Under the pieces are notes generated by a model that saw only the letters and a program-made list of their open reading frames with translations, was not told the origin of the DNA and ran no database searches. The position numbers and the translations under genes are program-made. From a virus, in the IMG/VR virus record IMGVR_UViG_2822571654_000002: a stretch of DNA of 64,000 nt; one strand, given 5' to 3'. This document shows, one piece after another, positions 1,809-26,930 of this stretch (position 1 is the stretch's first letter; every line of letters begins with the position of its first letter).

Positions 1809-2964
1809 AATCTAACACCCCGAATAATTTAATTTCTTCTTGTGAAGGATTCTGAAGCGCTATATCTTCTTTAGGAACGCGATAAGGTTCAATAATTTGT
1901 TTTGCTTTGCTTAATTCTAAATAAGGAGCTTGCACTTTCTTCAATCCGTTTAACTTCAGAATCATTTGGCCTAATTGCTCCAAGTGTTCTGATCCAGGTG
2001 TACCCATGATGTTACTATTAATCGTACTATCACATTTAAAACCCATTCTAACAGTCATATTCAGCTTTAGCTTACCATCTAATACTTTTGCATCAGGACG
2101 TTGCATACTGAGCATAAGAAAGACGCCTAATGCCCTACCGACTGCCGATATCTTTTCAATTGCGGACATACATTCTTTTTCATCCTGAAGCATTGCCACT
2201 TCATCAATCGCCAGCAAAATATATGGTTTCTGATTATTGGGATTTATTTTGTTGTATTCATCGATGTGATCCACTTCATACTCTTCCATCAGTTTTCTAC
2301 GTTCGCGTATTTCCTGCCACACTTTCTGCAACATGATCTTCATTTCGATTTCTTCCATACAAACCTCTTTTACGTGTTTCACCCTTCTCAAGAAATGAAA
2401 TTCGGAGTTTTTTAAGTCGCCCAGGTACAAATGCAATTTATCAGGGGACATGTATTGAATGAGTGTGGACAGAACAACACGTACCATACTACTTTTACCG
2501 CTTCCCGTTTCTCCAGCTATGAGTAAATGTGGTGTATTTGAATCAACCATATCATACGTAATCATCTTTCCGAATTGGTCACGTCCTACCATAACAGGGA
2601 GGCGATGTTGCTTTAGTAACGACTGCCACTTCTTATAACTGTAATTATATGTTTGTAGCCCTGCATCCAAACGGAATACATTGAGCACAAACCGTTTAAT
2701 ATCACCTTCAATTGCTACATTTCTTCCTAATATTTGTTGAAAGCAAAACCATTTCTTTTCAATAGTCTTTGGATCTAAACCATTCGGAATAGTAAATACA
2801 TATCGAACATTTTCTTGTGTGGAAGAAACAGAATGTATTTTGGGATAAATCGGCACTTTCCCACCACGTGTTTGATGGTCCACATATAAACCAGCTTTTC
2901 TAAATACCTCTATAAGTCGATTCTTTAAACTTTGTTTATGAAACCATTCTTTGATGAATTCCAT
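1798..2964 (-). CDS. FtsK/SpoIIIE-family ATPase
   Basis: HLLIAGETGSGKS Walker A, LAIDEVA Walker B, GRALGVFLMLSMQRPDA motif. Confidence 0.92.
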   Translation of the reverse strand: MEFIKEWFHKQSLKNRLIEVFRKAGLYVDHQTRGGKVPIYPKIHSVSSTQENVRYVFTIPNGLDPKTIEKKWFCFQQILGRNVAIEGDIKRFVLNVFRLDAGLQTYNYSYKKWQSLLKQHRLPVMVGRDQFGKMITYDMVDSNTPHLLIAGETGSGKSSMVRVVLSTLIQYMSPDKLHLYLGDLKNSEFHFLRRVKHVKEVCMEEIEMKIMLQKVWQEIRERRKLMEEYEVDHIDEYNKINPNNQKPYILLAIDEVAMLQDEKECMSAIEKISAVGRALGVFLMLSMQRPDAKVLDGKLKLNMTVRMGFKCDSTINSNIMGTPGSEHLEQLGQMILKLNGLKKVQAPYLELSKAKQIIEPYRVPKEDIALQNPSQEEIKLFGVLDYEE

Positions 2965-2974
2965 GTGATACCTC

Positions 2975-3169
2975 CTAAAACATGATTAAGATTTTGATAA
3001 ATACATATCCAATGAAACAAACTCCACCTATCCTCATTCCATGATACATTCCGTCGCTTAATAGCTTAGCTGCCACAACGTGATCGTTTTTAACAAGATG
3101 CTTTTCTAATATTACCCCTCCAATTGTTGTTACTCCCAAAGCTCCTAAAGAAATAAATGTTGTTAACAA
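2975..3169 (-). CDS. Small membrane protein, first gene of the FtsK/relaxase operon
   Basis: GGGGAG then TTG at 3169; two hydrophobic segments. Track start is 3208. Confidence 0.65.
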   Translation of the reverse strand: MLTTFISLGALGVTTIGGVILEKHLVKNDHVVAAKLLSDGMYHGMRIGGVCFIGYVFIKILIMF

Positions 3170-3235
3170 ATAAATCTCCCCTTTATAAACAGATTTTGAA
3201 ATACCCATATTACAAGGGTTTATCGCCCCAATACC

Positions 3236-3375
3236 TTGATAGTGTTGCTTTGATAACTAACTTGATAACTACTTTGATAGTACAAATACTAGTTACCTTG
3301 ATAGCGATTAGGCTATTTACTTTGGTAGCTACTTTGGTAATAAGTTCGATAGTTACTTTGGTAGCAACCTTGATA
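3236..3375. repeat. 12-bp-period tandem array (core TTGATA/TTGGTA)
   Basis: Cores at 3250, 3262, 3274, 3298, 3322, 3334, 3346 (TCGATA), 3358, 3370, all multiples of 12 apart; an extra core at 3236. Confidence 0.85.
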
Positions 3376-21408: not shown

Positions 21409-22335
21409 TCATTTCATGTTCAACTCCTTCAAAGTTTCTTCCCTCATCTTCTGTTTCTCTTCTTCAGATAGGCCTAATATATTGTTATCTACGGCAGGGG
21501 ACATAATACATTTACAGTTAATTCTTTCACGCCCACTTAACGAACTATCACGAGGAAACATACACCGTTCTCCAGAACCGGGGAGCTCAAATTCTTCCTC
21601 TACCAGAACCGTTGTACCGTCATAAGCCACATGATTGTCACGAGGTCGATTGTTCTTTGTACCGCTATGACGCCACTTCTTACCTATTACAGCAGGGGAT
21701 TGGCGATATGATTCAAATTGAGAAGCAGAACATGCTGCGAGGACCTCTGTCTGCGCTGTTGTCTTTGCTCTTTTACGGTCGAATTCCGGTAGCTTCGCAA
21801 GCTCTCTTGCTATTTCACGAATACCTTTCTCTTTCTCTAATCCCTCGTTTAAAATACGCTCTACCGCTTTTTGCGAGTTAATCTGCATTAACTTACCTAA
21901 TTCATCAGACCAACTATTAATCCACTTTGTAGTGCGTTTTGAGAAGACATTAAACTGAATATCAGGATCAATTGCATCCATGAAAGCTTTCGTCATATCC
22001 TTCATCGTGTAATTAAGGAACTTCCTCGCTACTTTACTCAAACTTTTAGCGAATGTATCAGCTCCAAATAGACTGCCAGTAACAAAGTTAATAACATCCT
22101 TTATCGTGATACCCTTTTCGATAGCATCCTTTTTCGTATAGTTCTTAATTCCATCAACAATGTACTTCTTCTGCTTCCGAAGTAGCTTGGCAACTTCCTT
22201 TTCGAAGTCCTCAACGTATCCCGGTAACATGTCCAATACTTCCAGATCATCAGGCAATGAATCTGTAAAATCACCAGTATCAGCTTTCTCTATCCACTCA
22301 TTTAATGAATCTAGCAGTTTATCAATCTTCTGCAT
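21409..22335 (-). CDS. Minor head morphogenesis protein (SPP1 gp7/Mu F-like)
   Basis: KKWRHSG...RDNHVAYDG...INCKC motif. Confidence 0.88.
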   Translation of the reverse strand: MQKIDKLLDSLNEWIEKADTGDFTDSLPDDLEVLDMLPGYVEDFEKEVAKLLRKQKKYIVDGIKNYTKKDAIEKGITIKDVINFVTGSLFGADTFAKSLSKVARKFLNYTMKDMTKAFMDAIDPDIQFNVFSKRTTKWINSWSDELGKLMQINSQKAVERILNEGLEKEKGIREIARELAKLPEFDRKRAKTTAQTEVLAACSASQFESYRQSPAVIGKKWRHSGTKNNRPRDNHVAYDGTTVLVEEEFELPGSGERCMFPRDSSLSGRERINCKCIMSPAVDNNILGLSEEEKQKMREETLKELNMK

Positions 22336-23860
22336 CTTGCATCGACTCCAATAAGTCTCGCACATCTTTCATTACATTTACGAGTTCTTCCTTAGCATTA
22401 CCACCAGCTGATTTTTGTAGCTTCTCACTTAACCCTTCCTCCCAACCACTTACCTTACGATGTCTTTCTAAAACTAAAGCAACTGGTTGATCCGCTTCAG
22501 GAATATCATAATCTGAGAACTCTTTATTTAGCATATTGCCAGCAATATTGCGTATATCCTGGAATGTTAAACCACCCTTATCAGCAAGCACCTCAATGGT
22601 TTTAACCATATCCTCCGTGTTACTGATCTCTGATTTTCGTAGGTTTACGTATACGTATTTTAATCCATATGGAAGTAGCAGCACATTGTTAATAATAAAT
22701 TCTAAAGCGCTTCGTTCCGGTTCAAATACCTGCTCCTCTGTAATCTCTCGTACAGATTCAGCAGTTGCTCTGTTAAAGTCGCGAATATAACCTACATATA
22801 CGTCTGGTAAACGGAATGCTGATTGTACTTTTTGGCGTGATTTCTCATCATATTCAAGAAATAGAGCATCATTTTGCAGGATATCTGCTAGTGATTTAAG
22901 CTCGATATCCACTGACGTTGGAGTATCACCTACAATACCCTCTTCAGCACTTTCCACTTGCAGTAGCAGATATTTATGTTGATTATCTTCACCTTCAACA
23001 TTCGAAACATAATCAGTTAGAGCTGCTTCACTTTCTTCTGATAAAATCCCATTCTTCAGTAAGATAGCCATCGGAATATGACGCCCTTGTTTGAAATAGC
23101 GTAGATTTAATTCCTCTGCCTTCCTAGCTCCTACCATATGAACAACATGCGATACCCAACGTGGGATACCATAAGGGCCATTCCCTATCTTCAGTTGTAT
23201 TACTTCAGTGGCGTTTTTTTCGCCAAATGTAGAAGTACCAAATTGGCCAGTTTCTTTATTCAAGAAACGTGGATCCCCGAATTCTTTAAAGTACGTGTCA
23301 GTATTTCCTACTCGCTGCACATAGCGACGAAATAGTTTTTTTCTTTTAACTTCATTTCCGTTAATGGTATAAGTAACCTCTTGAGGTTTATCATCCTTAC
23401 GTGTGACCCTCATGTACTGCGACAACATATTTACTAATTCAGCAGGTTTCCCATCTAAATTACGAATCACTTCAATATATCCATTGCCTGTGGTTTCTCT
23501 ATCGTCGATACTTGTCTCAAGAACTTCTTTAAACGGTTTGTCGAAACTAAATAAAGGAATTACCTCATCATTCACAAAGGACCATTCCATTTTCATCTCT
23601 GTCGTTTCTTTAATATCCCCTTGCTTATACTTCATCTCATGACCAAATCCAGCAATATTACGCTTATACGCATCAATACATTGCCCTAGAATCGTACTAT
23701 TTTCCCTAATCTGCTGCAAATCTTCAATTCTATAAGGTGGTTCGATAATATCATTAACTGCGTTCTTCTCATTCTCGCTCTCTTGTTGGCGAGATAATAC
23801 TTGAGTACTTATCCCTGCTGCCTTAATTACCTTTGCACTAACTTTCCTTTTCTTTGTCAT
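22322..23860 (-). CDS. Portal protein (PBSX-like)
   Basis: Follows terL; YGIPRW...NLRYFKQG motif. Confidence 0.9.
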   Translation of the reverse strand: MTKKRKVSAKVIKAAGISTQVLSRQQESENEKNAVNDIIEPPYRIEDLQQIRENSTILGQCIDAYKRNIAGFGHEMKYKQGDIKETTEMKMEWSFVNDEVIPLFSFDKPFKEVLETSIDDRETTGNGYIEVIRNLDGKPAELVNMLSQYMRVTRKDDKPQEVTYTINGNEVKRKKLFRRYVQRVGNTDTYFKEFGDPRFLNKETGQFGTSTFGEKNATEVIQLKIGNGPYGIPRWVSHVVHMVGARKAEELNLRYFKQGRHIPMAILLKNGILSEESEAALTDYVSNVEGEDNQHKYLLLQVESAEEGIVGDTPTSVDIELKSLADILQNDALFLEYDEKSRQKVQSAFRLPDVYVGYIRDFNRATAESVREITEEQVFEPERSALEFIINNVLLLPYGLKYVYVNLRKSEISNTEDMVKTIEVLADKGGLTFQDIRNIAGNMLNKEFSDYDIPEADQPVALVLERHRKVSGWEEGLSEKLQKSAGGNAKEELVNVMKDVRDLLESMQDAED

Positions 23861-23874
23861 TAAGTTGCTTCACC

Positions 23875-24759
23875 TCATTTCTTTTTCTTCTTTTTACGTA
23901 ATCCGAATATAATCGTGTTAATGAAGTATCTCGTTTCGTCCATGTGATGGTCATTCTCTTTAAGTGGTTTATCCTCACCGCGTTGGATCGCTTTTTCATC
24001 CCATATATAAGAGGCAAACTCCTTAAACGTCTCAACGCAGCAATCGTTAAAGTATGTTCTGCCTGTATTAAGCGCTATACCAACGTTTCCAATTCCCTCT
24101 TTCACATTATTACGAGCCTTATATACTTTCCTCTTATTACGCATCAATACAGCGATAAACGAAGCAGCCGAGGGGTCAACTACTGTTCCTTTAATTGGCA
24201 AACCACCAACGAATTCCTCATAGTCTTCGTAGTATTCCTGATCTGTTTTCTGCTTCTCTGCATCACGGCCACTATAATGGTACTCCTTGATTTTATACCA
24301 CACTTCTTTGTCGCCTTCTTCAATACATTTACCCCATAATCCGTACGCCATAGCGTTCTGCGTACCGTAGTCGCAAGAAACATAATACTCAACGTAATTA
24401 CGATCTACTAGATCAACTTTGTGCACTTCTTCCTTAAACATATCAAATACAAGACCTGAAGCAGCTGCCCACAATCCTAAAATGTACCGTTTGAAGAAGA
24501 CACCGCTATATAACTTGTAATAACGTTGTTTTGTCTTCTTAGAAAGGGATAAGTTATCATCCATAGTAAAGCGAACATGCAGTAAATTCTTTTCCTTACG
24601 CTTATCGAGCCATTCCAACTTAAACCAGTGATATGGACCTGCCGGATTGCAGTTGAACCATATTTTTGAGCCCTCTACTGAACAACGACCTGTCGCCTGA
24701 TCTACGAAACTCCGAACCATCAGTGCTACCTCGTCAAAGAAACAGCCTGCTAAAGTGAT
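23875..24759 (-). CDS. terL: Terminase large subunit, exon 2 (Walker B and nuclease domain)
   Basis: Begins ATC ACT TTA GCA = ITLAGCFFDEVALM; NCNPAGP, VSCDYGT and DHHMDETRY motifs. Confidence 0.93.
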   Translation of the reverse strand: MTLAGCFFDEVALMVRSFVDQATGRCSVEGSKIWFNCNPAGPYHWFKLEWLDKRKEKNLLHVRFTMDDNLSLSKKTKQRYYKLYSGVFFKRYILGLWAAASGLVFDMFKEEVHKVDLVDRNYVEYYVSCDYGTQNAMAYGLWGKCIEEGDKEVWYKIKEYHYSGRDAEKQKTDQEYYEDYEEFVGGLPIKGTVVDPSAASFIAVLMRNKRKVYKARNNVKEGIGNVGIALNTGRTYFNDCCVETFKEFASYIWDEKAIQRGEDKPLKENDHHMDETRYFINTIIFGLRKKKKKK

Positions 24760-25741
24760 CTATTTGTTATCGCAGTGGCTTTTTATCCTCTGCTTCTTAT
24801 AGTTTCCTATAAGTTCGGCGTACGTTTTCAACCAATAAAAAAGACAACCTACATTGGTTGTCGGGCACTCTTGGAAGGATTATATTTATTCACCTTCTAC
24901 GCTCTACGGTGACAAGTAGCCTTTCGCGATCTACTTGTTTACCTCGGCATTCACTTATCTCTTTTTAACAGGATCTAATATTTCTGCTACAGTTTTACCT
25001 TTTCTTCTTCTGTTCGCTAATACTGAATATGGTAAGTTTAAATGTCTAGCCCACTCTGGCATTGTCATGGTCATACCATTATGTATTAATACAATGTTAT
25101 TTCGTTTATTGTTACCTTGTGTGATGTCATCTGCCCATCTACAATTATTCGGTTCATAATCGCCGTTAAAATCAATTCTATCAACGGAAAGTGATTCATT
25201 GTATCCGTTATTAATTGACCAATTATAGAAGTTCATAAAATCATTTTTCCACTCATCACACATAACAATTCCTCTATCACCATACAGATGATACTCAGGA
25301 TATTTTTCATAATAACATCTCTCTTTTATCTTGTTGTATATCTTATATAATCTCGTTTTAGATAAACCATGACTTTTATTAGGATTATTTATTTTGAAAT
25401 TGTTAGCAACTAATACCTTTTCGCGATAACATCCGCAACTTTTATAAATGTTTTTCGCTTTTATTTGGTCTGCCCTCCTAACAAATTCTTTACCACATTC
25501 ACATTTACACTTCCAAAATACGCGTTTACGTTTCCCTTCTCCTTGAAAGTGAGAGAATCCTAAAACCTTAATCATATCAAACACTTCACCTGTTAAATCT
25601 TTCATGAATAACACCTCTTTTTGTTATGTAATAATTATACTACATAACAACCAGTTAGTGTCATACCTTTAAAAAGAAACTTAGCGTCTGCCGATTTTGC
25701 CCGATGTTTGCCACCATATTACTATAGTGGAGGGCATCACT
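24760..25741 (-). mobile_element. Group I self-splicing intron (982 nt) in terL, carrying a homing endonuclease
   Basis: 5' exon ends in U (CAG GGU), intron ends in G. P1 AGGGU/GCCCU, P10 AGUGAU/AUCACU, P2 CCACUAUA-GUAA-UAUGGUGG, P3 CGGGCA/UGCCCG, P4 UCGGCA/UGCCGA, P7 GCGUA/UACGC, P8 GACAACC/GGUUGUC, P9 CUUAUAG-GAAA-CUAUAAG. Splicing restores DLIQG|ITLAG in frame. Confidence 0.92.
24955..25605 (-). CDS. Intron-encoded HNH-type homing endonuclease
   Basis: WKCKCECG...SCGC and SVDRIDFNGDYEPNNCRWA...QGNNKR motifs; GAGGTG SD before ATG at 25605. Confidence 0.88.
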   Translation of the reverse strand: MKDLTGEVFDMIKVLGFSHFQGEGKRKRVFWKCKCECGKEFVRRADQIKAKNIYKSCGCYREKVLVANNFKINNPNKSHGLSKTRLYKIYNKIKERCYYEKYPEYHLYGDRGIVMCDEWKNDFMNFYNWSINNGYNESLSVDRIDFNGDYEPNNCRWADDITQGNNKRNNIVLIHNGMTMTMPEWARHLNLPYSVLANRRRKGKTVAEILDPVKKR

Positions 25742-26161
25742 ACCCTGTATTAAATCTTGTGAACTTTCATCTTTCCCACCAAAAATGTAAAAGAAATTAG
25801 TAACTCCATCCTTAGTAATTGAGAGCATATTTTCACTTCTATGATCTTTAACCTTATAACCACGAGACTTGAGCATTTTTTTAAGCGGCGTTATAACGTT
25901 ACGACGATGCGAACCAATTGTTTTCCCGCACATACCGAAGTTCTCACCTTCGAATGATTCCATTGCCCACATAACATAGGAAAGAGCCATCGATACTGTT
26001 TTTCCGGCACGAATAGAACCATCGCAAATAATCCCGTCATAATCTTTAACGGGACTGTTAGGCTTCCACCAGGTTAATACCTTCAGCTGCTTCTTGGAGA
26101 ATGGTTTAAATTTAAAGGGAGCAGGTTTCTTGTTACGCTTCGGAATCGTCGTCATGGTCAT
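25742..26161 (-). CDS. terL: Terminase large subunit, exon 1 (Walker A)
   Basis: CDGSIRAGKT; ends GGKDESSQDLIQG. The track ORF reads 27 codons into the intron. Confidence 0.93.
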
Positions 26162-26930
26162 CCCACACTTCCTCTACCTTTCCTTTTAGCGCCTCTTTGA
26201 AACCATCGTCTTCATACTCTTCCCCATCTTCTCCCTTAATACGAGCAGTGTCAGCTTTCGTTTTTTCAATGTTAACTTTCATCTGCTCTAACTTCAATCG
26301 TCTCTCATCATCAGCATTTGCTAACTTATCGAACCTCTCAATCATAGAGGATAACGCTGTCATAGCGCGCGAATAAGCTGTAAGTAAATTAGCTTGTTTA
26401 TCCCATGCAAACTGCACTGTGTATGCGTCTCCATTCAGTGATTCGCTAATCATCTCTTTTGACATATCATTTTGACTGCGAACATGCATAATACGTTGCG
26501 AATTAAGGATATTGAAGTACTGCAGTTGAATAGAGTGAAATAGCATATCTAATTCAGTATGATTTTGTATTTCATCTAGCAATTCCATCGCATGCGGATC
26601 GTCACTCGGGATTATCTTCCTAAACAATCCATGCGTCATAGCGTTATGGTTCCCTTTTGGCGGGCCATGCCCTACTGCATTCTTGTTCCCATACTTAGGA
26701 TTCTTGTTTCCCCGATTACCCACTGCATTCTTATTCCCAATGGGTGCACCTGTTTTCTTGGTTTGGGTGCATCCTTTTTCGTCTTTTGGGTGCACCCCTT
26801 TTCGATTCCAGCCATGCCTTTTTCTCCAGGACTTAATTGTATTAATACTGACCTCATATTTCTCAGCCAGTTCCTTATACTTCATACCTTGCATGTAATC
26901 TTCTTGAGCTAACTCGTGTTTTTGTTTCAC
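26133..26930 (-). CDS. terS: Terminase small subunit
   Basis: N-terminal HTH, GAPIGNKNA(VG) repeats, NAMTHGLF motif. Confidence 0.9.
   Translation of the reverse strand: MKQKHELAQEDYMQGMKYKELAEKYEVSINTIKSWRKRHGWNRKGVHPKDEKGCTQTKKTGAPIGNKNAVGNRGNKNPKYGNKNAVGHGPPKGNHNAMTHGLFRKIIPSDDPHAMELLDEIQNHTELDMLFHSIQLQYFNILNSQRIMHVRSQNDMSKEMISESLNGDAYTVQFAWDKQANLLTAYSRAMTALSSMIERFDKLANADDERRLKLEQMKVNIEKTKADTARIKGEDGEEYEDDGFKEALKGKVEEVWDDHDDDSEA

Follow-up and report, generated by a model that had tools for sequence, protein, structure and literature searches.

An apparent group I intron with an endonuclease-like reading frame interrupts the large terminase gene of a Bacillus cereus-group phage

Organization of the interrupted gene

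The DNA considered here is a 64,000-nucleotide (nt) stretch of the IMG/VR virus record IMGVR_UViG_2822571654_000002, referred to in full as the window, and it comes from a temperate phage of the Bacillus cereus group. The list of open reading frames (ORFs) and profile matches place terS (26930..26133), terL and portal (23860..22322) in this order on the minus strand. The terL gene, which encodes the large subunit of the terminase (TerL), is divided by an insert that we regard, at a probability of about 0.9, as a functional group I intron. The parts of the gene are as follows.

25742..26161, minus strand: terL exon 1, 140 codons with the Walker A motif GSIRAGKT, matching phrog_2 (TerL) and 87% identical in nucleotide sequence to terL of Bacillus phage 0105phi7-2
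25741..24760, minus strand: putative group I intron, 982 nt, IA-like, recognized by empty-site alignment and family covariation
23875..24759, minus strand: terL exon 2, 294 codons and a stop codon, with the Walker B motif FFDE beginning 7 codons in
25661..25663, minus strand: TGA stop codon at which read-through from exon 1 ends after 81 nt of intron, closing a 166-amino-acid (aa) ORF (25661..26161)

The exact insertion was directly established by comparison with the intron-free terL of phage 0105phi7-2, the closest annotated phage, which served as the reference for the boundaries. In blastn, positions 1-415 of the reference gene aligned with exon 1 (87% identity) and positions 415-1296 with exon 2 (77%), with zero gap at the junction. 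No base is extra or missing there, and the insert is therefore 982 base pairs (bp) long, plus or minus one ambiguous A. The last codons of exon 1 are CAG GGT, reaching 25742; the insert ends in ...AAATAG; and exon 2 opens with ATC ACT at 24759, so that the intron separates terL codon 140 from codon 141, and Walker B follows seven codons downstream. The ambiguous A could be assigned because only in the phase GGU/AGUGAU...AAAUAG/AUCACU does the 5' splice site follow a U and the intron finish in G. A boundary moved by one A would give A at position -1 and A at the omega position, and was rejected.

Joining the exons yields an ORF of 434 aa from the ATG at 26161, or of 432 aa from the ATG at 26155, the start used by 0105phi7-2. 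Across the junction the joined protein reads ...QDLIQG followed by ITLAGCFFDEVALM (...QDLIQG/ITLAGCFFDE...), and it is 88% identical to the TerL of 0105phi7-2 in a single high-scoring segment pair (residues 1-428) that runs straight through the junction. Exon 2 matches Pfam Terminase_3 and phrog_10250 (E=3.5e-74). A preliminary description of this DNA, made from the letters alone, had named the same boundaries (CAG GGU, a final intron G, AUC ACU) and the same 434-aa product; the sequence, the gapless alignment and the identity across the junction bear both out. At its boundary, exon 2 has neither a start codon nor a Shine-Dalgarno (SD) sequence, and its first in-frame ATG (24720) falls after Walker B.

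Two other kinds of insert were considered and rejected. An intein does not fit, as the ORF within the insert uses a different frame from the exons, with stop codons in between; a group II intron does not fit either, as the insert has no reverse transcriptase ORF and no GUGYG/AY ends. A motif search of the window found only one copy of the intron.

Folding of the inserted RNA

The architecture of the insert was observed directly as a series of paired (P) and joining (J) segments, listed here from the 5' end of the RNA.

25731..25741, minus strand: internal guide sequence, intron nt 1-6 AGUGAU (P10 partner) and nt 7-11 GCCCU (P1 partner)
25711..25730, minus strand: P2, 8 bp, CCACUAUA/UAUGGUGG, with a GUAA tetraloop
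25689..25704, minus strand: P3 5' strand UCGGGC, J3/4 AAAA and P4 5' strand UCGGCA, located by a long-range complement test
25669..25680, minus strand: P5 5' strand GUUUCUUUUUAA, with its partner at 24968..24957
24944..24968, minus strand: P5 3' strand UUAAAAAGAGAU (24968..24957), J5/4 and P4 3' strand UGCCGA (24949..24944), located by sequence and complement test
24908..24943, minus strand: P6, GGU/ACC plus CAAGUAG/CUACUUG
24818..24902, minus strand: catalytic core, from P7 to the P7 3' strand
24760..24813, minus strand: P9 (7 bp, GAAA loop), P9.1 (GCAGAGG/CCACUGC) and the tail GAUAACAAAUAG, which ends in omegaG

The elements that define the splice sites are all present. First, intron nt 1-6 (AGUGAU) are Watson-Crick complements of the first six nucleotides of exon 2 (AUCACU) at 6 of 6 positions, forming P10; the chance of a perfect complement at this fixed position is about 1/4096. 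Second, AGGGU at the end of exon 1 (25746..25742) pairs with GCCCU in the intron (25735..25731) to form a P1 of 5 bp with a U.G pair at the splice site. Third, the last intron base, at 24760, is G (omegaG). Both the six-base P10 complement and the U-G wobble of P1 had been pointed out in the preliminary description, and the helices that it listed (P2, P3, P4, P7, P8 and P9) do exist.

In the catalytic core, P6 is followed by J6/7 (GUAGA) and by P7, with its 5' strand GCGUA at 24902..24898 and its 3' strand (G)UACGC at 24823..24818. Between these strands lie the P7.1 hairpin (GAAGG/CCUUC, with the conserved 14-nt loop UGAAUAAAUAUAAU), the P3 3' strand GCCCGA (24866..24861), P8 (CAACCAAU/AUUGGUUG) and J8/7 (AAAAC). 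As a single hairpin, P7.1, stands between P7 and P3', the putative intron is placed in subgroup IA on the basis of its sequence. P9.1 has 7 bp with one mismatch (A-A), and the tail is kept in all relatives, which end in ...GAUAACAA(N)G. When each ribozyme half was folded alone by thermodynamic prediction, P1, P2, P7, P7.1, a variant of P8 and P9 were recovered, and the z-scores of the two halves against shuffled sequences were -3.65 and -4.07.

Homologous introns interrupt another gene in the Staphylococcus phages ROSA, vB_SepS_BE28 and PG-2021_93, where the host gene is a tail-completion/neck gene rather than terL. Their 3' ribozyme halves are 83-86% identical to that of the terL intron over 94-95% of the length, and they share with it the P3-P9.1 architecture and P2, a fully covarying 8-bp helix with the same GUAA loop. 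A shorter, compensated P5 is found in these introns and in a further relative (locus L195). Their guide sequence, ACGUAU/GUCGC compared to AGUGAU/GCCCU here, is retargeted to another exon context, with GCGAU/GUCGC as the equivalent of P1. In general, when the relatives are set side by side, covariation is seen in P2, P3, P4, P6, P7.1, P9 and P9.1; the guide sequences differ completely, each fitted to its own exons. When the 5' ribozyme part (25606-25760) was compared with phages by BLAST, no match was returned; kinship in this part is visible structurally only.

Covariation in the RNA family

The 3' half of the intron matches 131 phage records. A wider family was collected with a 19-base signature made of P7 plus the P7.1 loop, which retrieved at least 115 IMG/VR contigs and 81 GTDB species-representative genomes, mostly of Bacillota. 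Covariation was then observed in 177 unique 3' halves, with partner-shifted pairings as controls. Paired cells made up 97% in P6, 97% in P7.1, 93% in P9, 93% in P9.1 and 83% in P8, and three to six canonical pair types occurred per position (up to 6 in P6 and 4-6 in P7.1), as against 0.2-0.76 in the shifted controls (0.24-0.76 for P6).

For the long-range helices, a perfect upstream complement of the P3'/P4' strands (12 of 12 positions) was found in 140 of the 177 members, with a J3/4 spacer that is mostly AAAA; when the 3' strands were swapped between members, only 14 of 177 were perfect. The family members contain 72 distinct combinations of P3 strands. P7 shows no variation in this set because the search pattern fixed it, and compensatory variants were seen by eye in two relatives: GCAUA/UAUGC in phage vB-SscS-F1 (L005) and GACUA/UAGUC in phage 2972 (L003). 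Covariation thus supports P3, P4, P6, P7.1, P8, P9 and P9.1 and, as a sequence-based argument, speaks strongly for a group I fold that includes the P3/P7 pseudoknot. Most members of the family lack an ORF, with a median distance of 109 nt from P3 to P7.

The P9-P9.1-tail module (about 55 nt; window 24760..24816) has 86-94% identity with introns whose cores differ, in S. thermophilus, Clostridium and Bastillevirinae phages. This sharing suggests that modules may have been exchanged between intron lineages.

The preliminary description had proposed a search with group I covariance models as a check. The Rfam model RF00028 (Intron_gpI) gave no match on the intron region at E<=1, nor any on the whole window at the gathering score. 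This result is uninformative rather than negative, a gap in sensitivity, since RF00028 also misses the ORF-less relatives L005, L011 and L056; in the present intron, moreover, an ORF of about 650 nt interrupts the model. The same model scores the terL intron of phage 2972 at 53.3 bits, above its gathering score of 50. RF00028 is therefore blind to this subfamily, of which more than 190 loci with strong covariation were fetched, and automated annotation has a blind spot here.

Splicing of the terL transcript

The case for a group I intron in terL is built on the empty-site comparison, the combination of P1, P10 and omegaG, the covariation in the family and a co-conversion footprint in the exons (see below). 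From these features we infer that the RNA catalyzes its own splicing. In the proposed pathway, which is the canonical one of group I introns, folding of the precursor mRNA would bring the guide sequence into pairing with both exons, in P1 (with its U.G wobble) with the last bases of exon 1 and in P10 with the first bases of exon 2. P7 would bind an exogenous guanosine, which would attack after U25742; the freed exon 1 would then attack after omegaG at 24760, and the product would be an mRNA encoding the 434-aa TerL. DNA packaging would then depend on splicing, since neither exon alone specifies a complete ATPase: Walker A lies in exon 1, and Walker B and the nuclease domain lie in exon 2.

Several observations weigh against this reading, the silence of Rfam among them. 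RNA data were drawn from five RNA runs that share 6-9% of sampled words with the window and yielded three short contigs. No spliced or junction-spanning read was found in these five runs, whose fragments are uninformative either way. One RNA contig (24683-24850, run X1) continues through the 3' splice site without being spliced; it may represent DNA or precursor. Furthermore, translation of exon 1 enters 81 nt of the intron, through P1-P5, and could disturb folding.

If the silence of Rfam and the lack of a spliced read were taken at face value, the insert could be a mobile cassette for a free-standing endonuclease that does not splice, in which case terL would be split into two reassembling polypeptides or the prophage would be inactivated. 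Gene callers and GenBank records do give such terL genes as two coding sequences (CDSs), as the preliminary description had expected of automatic annotation, and this fits a split gene as well. A simple cassette, however, does not explain the dense group I covariation in about 330 nt of non-coding flanking sequence, and P1, P10 and omegaG are all there; the insert fits the phase of the empty allele exactly, and a second polypeptide would have to begin past Walker B for want of a start codon or SD at the exon 2 boundary. Taken together, these facts make a non-splicing cassette very improbable.

In the GenBank records of phage 2972 (L003), vB_CpeS-1181 (L004) and vB-SscS-F1 (L005), two CDSs, each named "terminase large subunit", flank related introns. 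The intron of vB_CpeS-1181 also contains a 259-aa "hypothetical protein".

A different view is that the intron is real but decayed, needing protein factors of the host or phage, so that it splices in vivo only and is not self-splicing. Several terL and pol introns of Bastillevirinae are spliced in vivo and not in vitro (PMC11878797). In the present intron, the A-A mismatch of P9.1 falls at a position that is paired in 128 of 141 family members, and ribosomes would be able to enter its first 81 nt. On the other side, the core helices and joining segments all fit the family consensus (J3/4 AAAA, J6/7 GUAGA, J8/7 AAAAC), and L2 and L9 are GNRA tetraloops, which are typical of self-folding introns. 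Decay of this kind is accordingly judged rather unlikely, and a functional group I intron remains the preferred interpretation.

The reading frame within the intron

The intron carries a single feature with coding capacity.

24955..25605, minus strand: intron ORF, 216 aa, in L5, preceded by the SD sequence AAGAGGUG at 25619..25612

The preliminary description had the ORF looped out within the P4 domain, and this is correct; more precisely, the ORF occupies L5, inside the P4-P6 domain. Its stop codon lies inside the P5 3' strand, which is formed by the last ORF codons and the stop. Three domains can be recognized: a Cys-rich beta domain at the N-terminus, a central His-Me-like domain (D142 R143 ... 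Y150 ... N154 ... N166 N170) and a helix-turn-helix-like tail at the C-terminus. The Staphylococcus introns described above contain a homologous ORF (34.6-38% aa identity) at the corresponding position between the ribozyme halves.

The label "HNH" that had been given to this ORF holds in part. The ORF matches phrog_374 ("HNH endonuclease", E=9e-64), with matches only to PHROG families of that name, and its family segment LSxDRIDxNGNYEPxNCRW....QxNNxRNN is HNH_3-like. What is absent is the first His of the H-N-H motif, the catalytic general base, which is replaced by Arg143 in 31 of 31 homologs. The ORF has 1692 homologs; in the 31 that were aligned, C33, C35, C37, C57, C59, H79, C97 and C116 are invariant, as are D142, R143, Y150, N154, C155, Q163, N166 and N170. 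A profile of the family aligned weakly with I-HmuI on the HNH motif (E=0.36), with Arg143 opposite the catalytic His of the I-HmuI "DH".

An AlphaFold (AF2) model of the ORF had a pLDDT (predicted local distance difference test) score of 89. Its best structural match (VIA-align) was PacI, with a root-mean-square deviation of 2.7 A over 77 residues (model residues 79-170) and a Z of 6.2, which is too low for a fold match to be considered safe. In PacI, a His-Me nuclease that lacks the His, a Tyr in the omega-loop replaces it (PMC5714182). Tyr150 would likewise be placed in the omega-loop, since it lies between two beta strands of the predicted model. Compared to PacI (PDB 3m7k/3ldy; His-Me finger group 20 of Jablonska et al. 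2017), the ORF likewise has no catalytic His and has a Tyr between the motif's beta strands. The two are only 18% identical, with no match at the sequence level. PacI is a restriction enzyme that acts as a dimer and has two Cys4 zinc sites, whereas the ORF is intron-borne and has additional N-terminal Cys-rich and C-terminal helix-turn-helix-like domains. On this modest evidence, the ORF probably encodes a PacI-like homing endonuclease from an atypical branch of the His-Me/HNH superfamily.

The missing His and the low Z are not the only points that tell against a nuclease. The ORF had no Pfam match at E<=10 (PF01844, PF13392 and others included) and no NCBIfam match at E<=1; phmmer found nothing meaningful in the PDB, and a Foldseek search of the whole model against the PDB returned nothing at E<=0.001. 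His-Me groups that lack both the His and a substitute Tyr are regarded as inactive by Jablonska et al. (PMC5714182), and the majority of the RNA family does without an ORF. The ribozyme could thus be genuine while the ORF is not, or never was, a nuclease, the product being a DNA- or RNA-binding maturase-like or degenerate protein and the intron having spread only passively with its phage. Such a history, however, would not lead one to expect that D142, Y150, N154, N166 and N170 are invariant across the ORF family, that Y150 probably sits in the loop where the Tyr of PacI replaces His, that related ORFs occur inside related introns of unrelated genes, or that the empty site has been recoded synonymously, as is the expected product of endonuclease-driven homing. 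We therefore consider a protein other than a nuclease unlikely, and an active homing endonuclease reasonably likely from the sequence evidence.

This endonuclease family is uncharacterised and atypical. A more far-reaching idea, which is possible but doubtful, is that its approximately 1,700 homologs, for which there is no Pfam or NCBIfam model, form a large uncurated class of intron-borne, His-less His-Me homing endonucleases of the PacI type. Arg143 would stand in the general-base position and Tyr150 of the omega-loop would act as the nucleophile, possibly via a covalent Tyr-DNA intermediate, while the accompanying RNA subfamily would be the one invisible to RF00028. If true, catalysis with Tyr150 as nucleophile would be new among the homing endonucleases described so far.

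Two further observations concern the ORF and its expression. First, in Staphylococcus phage Twort (106317..106975; L208), the overlapping "HNH endonuclease" CDSs ORF152 and ORF076 are 69% identical in nucleotide sequence to part of the intron ORF, and together they resemble a single member of this endonuclease family broken by a frameshift. Second, the region upstream of the intron ORF (window 25606..25665, minus strand) contains a 13-bp hairpin whose loop includes GTATAAT, a -10-like box, and the hairpin is flanked by an outer pairing of AUGACACU with the SD region AGGUGUUAU. A -10-like box and a pairing that masks the SD are found again in the copy of Bacillus sp. Brlt_9 (see below), and a GGTATAAT box recurs in the Staphylococcus introns. 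This arrangement suggests that the ORF may be expressed from an internal promoter and that its SD may be masked in the full-length precursor mRNA. Expression of this kind, from an internal promoter with masking of the SD, is known for the intron endonucleases of phage T4.

Mobility of the intron

Two further copies of the intron stand at this terL position, one in Bacillus sp. Brlt_9 (972 nt, 79% identical, with an intact ORF) and one in an IMG/VR phage (91% identical). An intron-free allele was found in a contig of a public run (X6), and it is about 98% identical in both exons, with 16 differences in 867 positions and 13 in 413. Within the 25 nt that span the site (window 24742..24759, 25742..25748), the empty allele differs at 10 positions, all of them synonymous, so that IQGITLAGC is encoded in both. 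The bases that form P1 and P10 are present in the occupied allele (GGU, AUCACU) and not in the empty one (GGA/AUUACC). The co-converted flanks are observed directly in this pair of alleles, and the recoded tract is, by its sequence, best described as a co-conversion (homing) footprint. Co-conversion of flanking exon has also been described for nrdE/nrdF sites by Tourasse & Kolstø (PMC2504315). The intron-free site of the 0105phi7-2 type reads CAAGGT/ATCACTTTGG.

The recoded tract may also be viewed as a footprint of either co-conversion or immunity to cleavage.

In the mechanism proposed here, the 216-aa ORF in the P5 loop would be the mobility gene, encoding a sequence-tolerant DNA endonuclease of the PacI-like branch of the His-Me (HNH) enzymes. 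Its targets would be intron-free terL alleles, cut during co-infection or when prophage and phage meet, and repair from the intron-bearing copy would bring in the intron together with a short tract of flanking exon. Both the activity and the target of the endonuclease are what we infer from the alleles and the protein family.

Other introns are found near this site. The nearest of the viral records compared (G001), in which the terL exons are about 93% and 87% identical, is without this intron and carries a different group I intron of about 970 nt (L006 = G001:C1, minus strand 3250..2281), with canonical R/S-like elements and a 201-aa GIY-YIG ORF. Its site is 105 nt downstream, after GSKMW and before (F)NCNP. 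In a distant terL (L056), an ORF-less member of the present family lies 24 nt upstream (KD/ESSQ). The latter was considered as a case of the same insertion site because the tblastn breakpoints are similar, and this was rejected on inspection, which puts the intron 24 nt upstream. With three intron sites within about 130 nt, the Walker B region of terL looks like a hotspot for intron insertion.

In this last case, an IMG/VR phage contig, the stretch upstream of terL (L056:1..4600) holds about 10 tRNA genes in an array and a ROOL RNA (RF03087, 197 bits, L056:1848-2415).

Comparison with known terL introns

Group I introns are known from the terL genes of phages, for example that of Lactobacillus phage LL-H. 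In prophages of the B. cereus group, Tourasse & Kolstø 2008 (PMC2504315) described two such introns, term-IVS1 in E33L, with a GIY-YIG gene, and term-IVS2 in 03BB108. Of the introns in that study, only term-IVS1 (GIY-YIG) and TMP-IVS3a (H-N-H) have an endonuclease gene (PMC2504315), so term-IVS2 is ORF-less. Both terL introns agree with the present one in host clade, host gene and kind of element. The likeness to term-IVS2 goes further: by BLAST it is reported to match the phage ROSA intron, as does the present intron (83% over the 3' half), and its exon 1 frame runs 108 nt into the intron, an oddity noted by the authors (PMC2504315), compared to 81 nt here. The difference, judged by the published description, is that term-IVS2 is ORF-less and the present intron has an intact ORF of 216 aa. 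Most simply, the present intron is an ORF-bearing relative of term-IVS2.

The terL introns of Bacillus Bastillevirinae, described in 2025, contain PHROG-"HNH" ORFs, and their splicing has been confirmed experimentally, as in SIOphi terL (PMC11878797). They are self-splicing introns; like the present one, they are of IA type and lie in terL, often with such ORFs. In contrast, the Bastillevirinae are myoviruses of the Herelleviridae, their insertion sites are others, and their ORFs belong to PHROGs P59, P559 and P2081 rather than phrog_374. In Eyuki and Megatron, the sequence shared with the present intron is limited to the P9-P9.1 tail module.

The intron of the S. thermophilus phage 2972 type also interrupts terL; it is ORF-less and about 300 nt long, and its P9-P9.1-tail module is about 89% identical. 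Its core differs, with P7 as GACUA/UAGUC and a larger P7.1/7.2 insert, and the terL that it interrupts is unrelated to the present one (25% aa identity).

Biological significance

The element is of an already known kind, as group I introns in terL have been described in Bacillus prophages since 2008. Without a call of the intron, terL would be reported as two fragments or as a pseudogene, and this may lead to the prophage being taken for a defective one. For the biology of these introns, the locus offers a clean natural example of homing, in which an occupied allele, a near-identical but recoded empty allele and, further removed, an empty allele whose site is near-cognate can be set beside each other.

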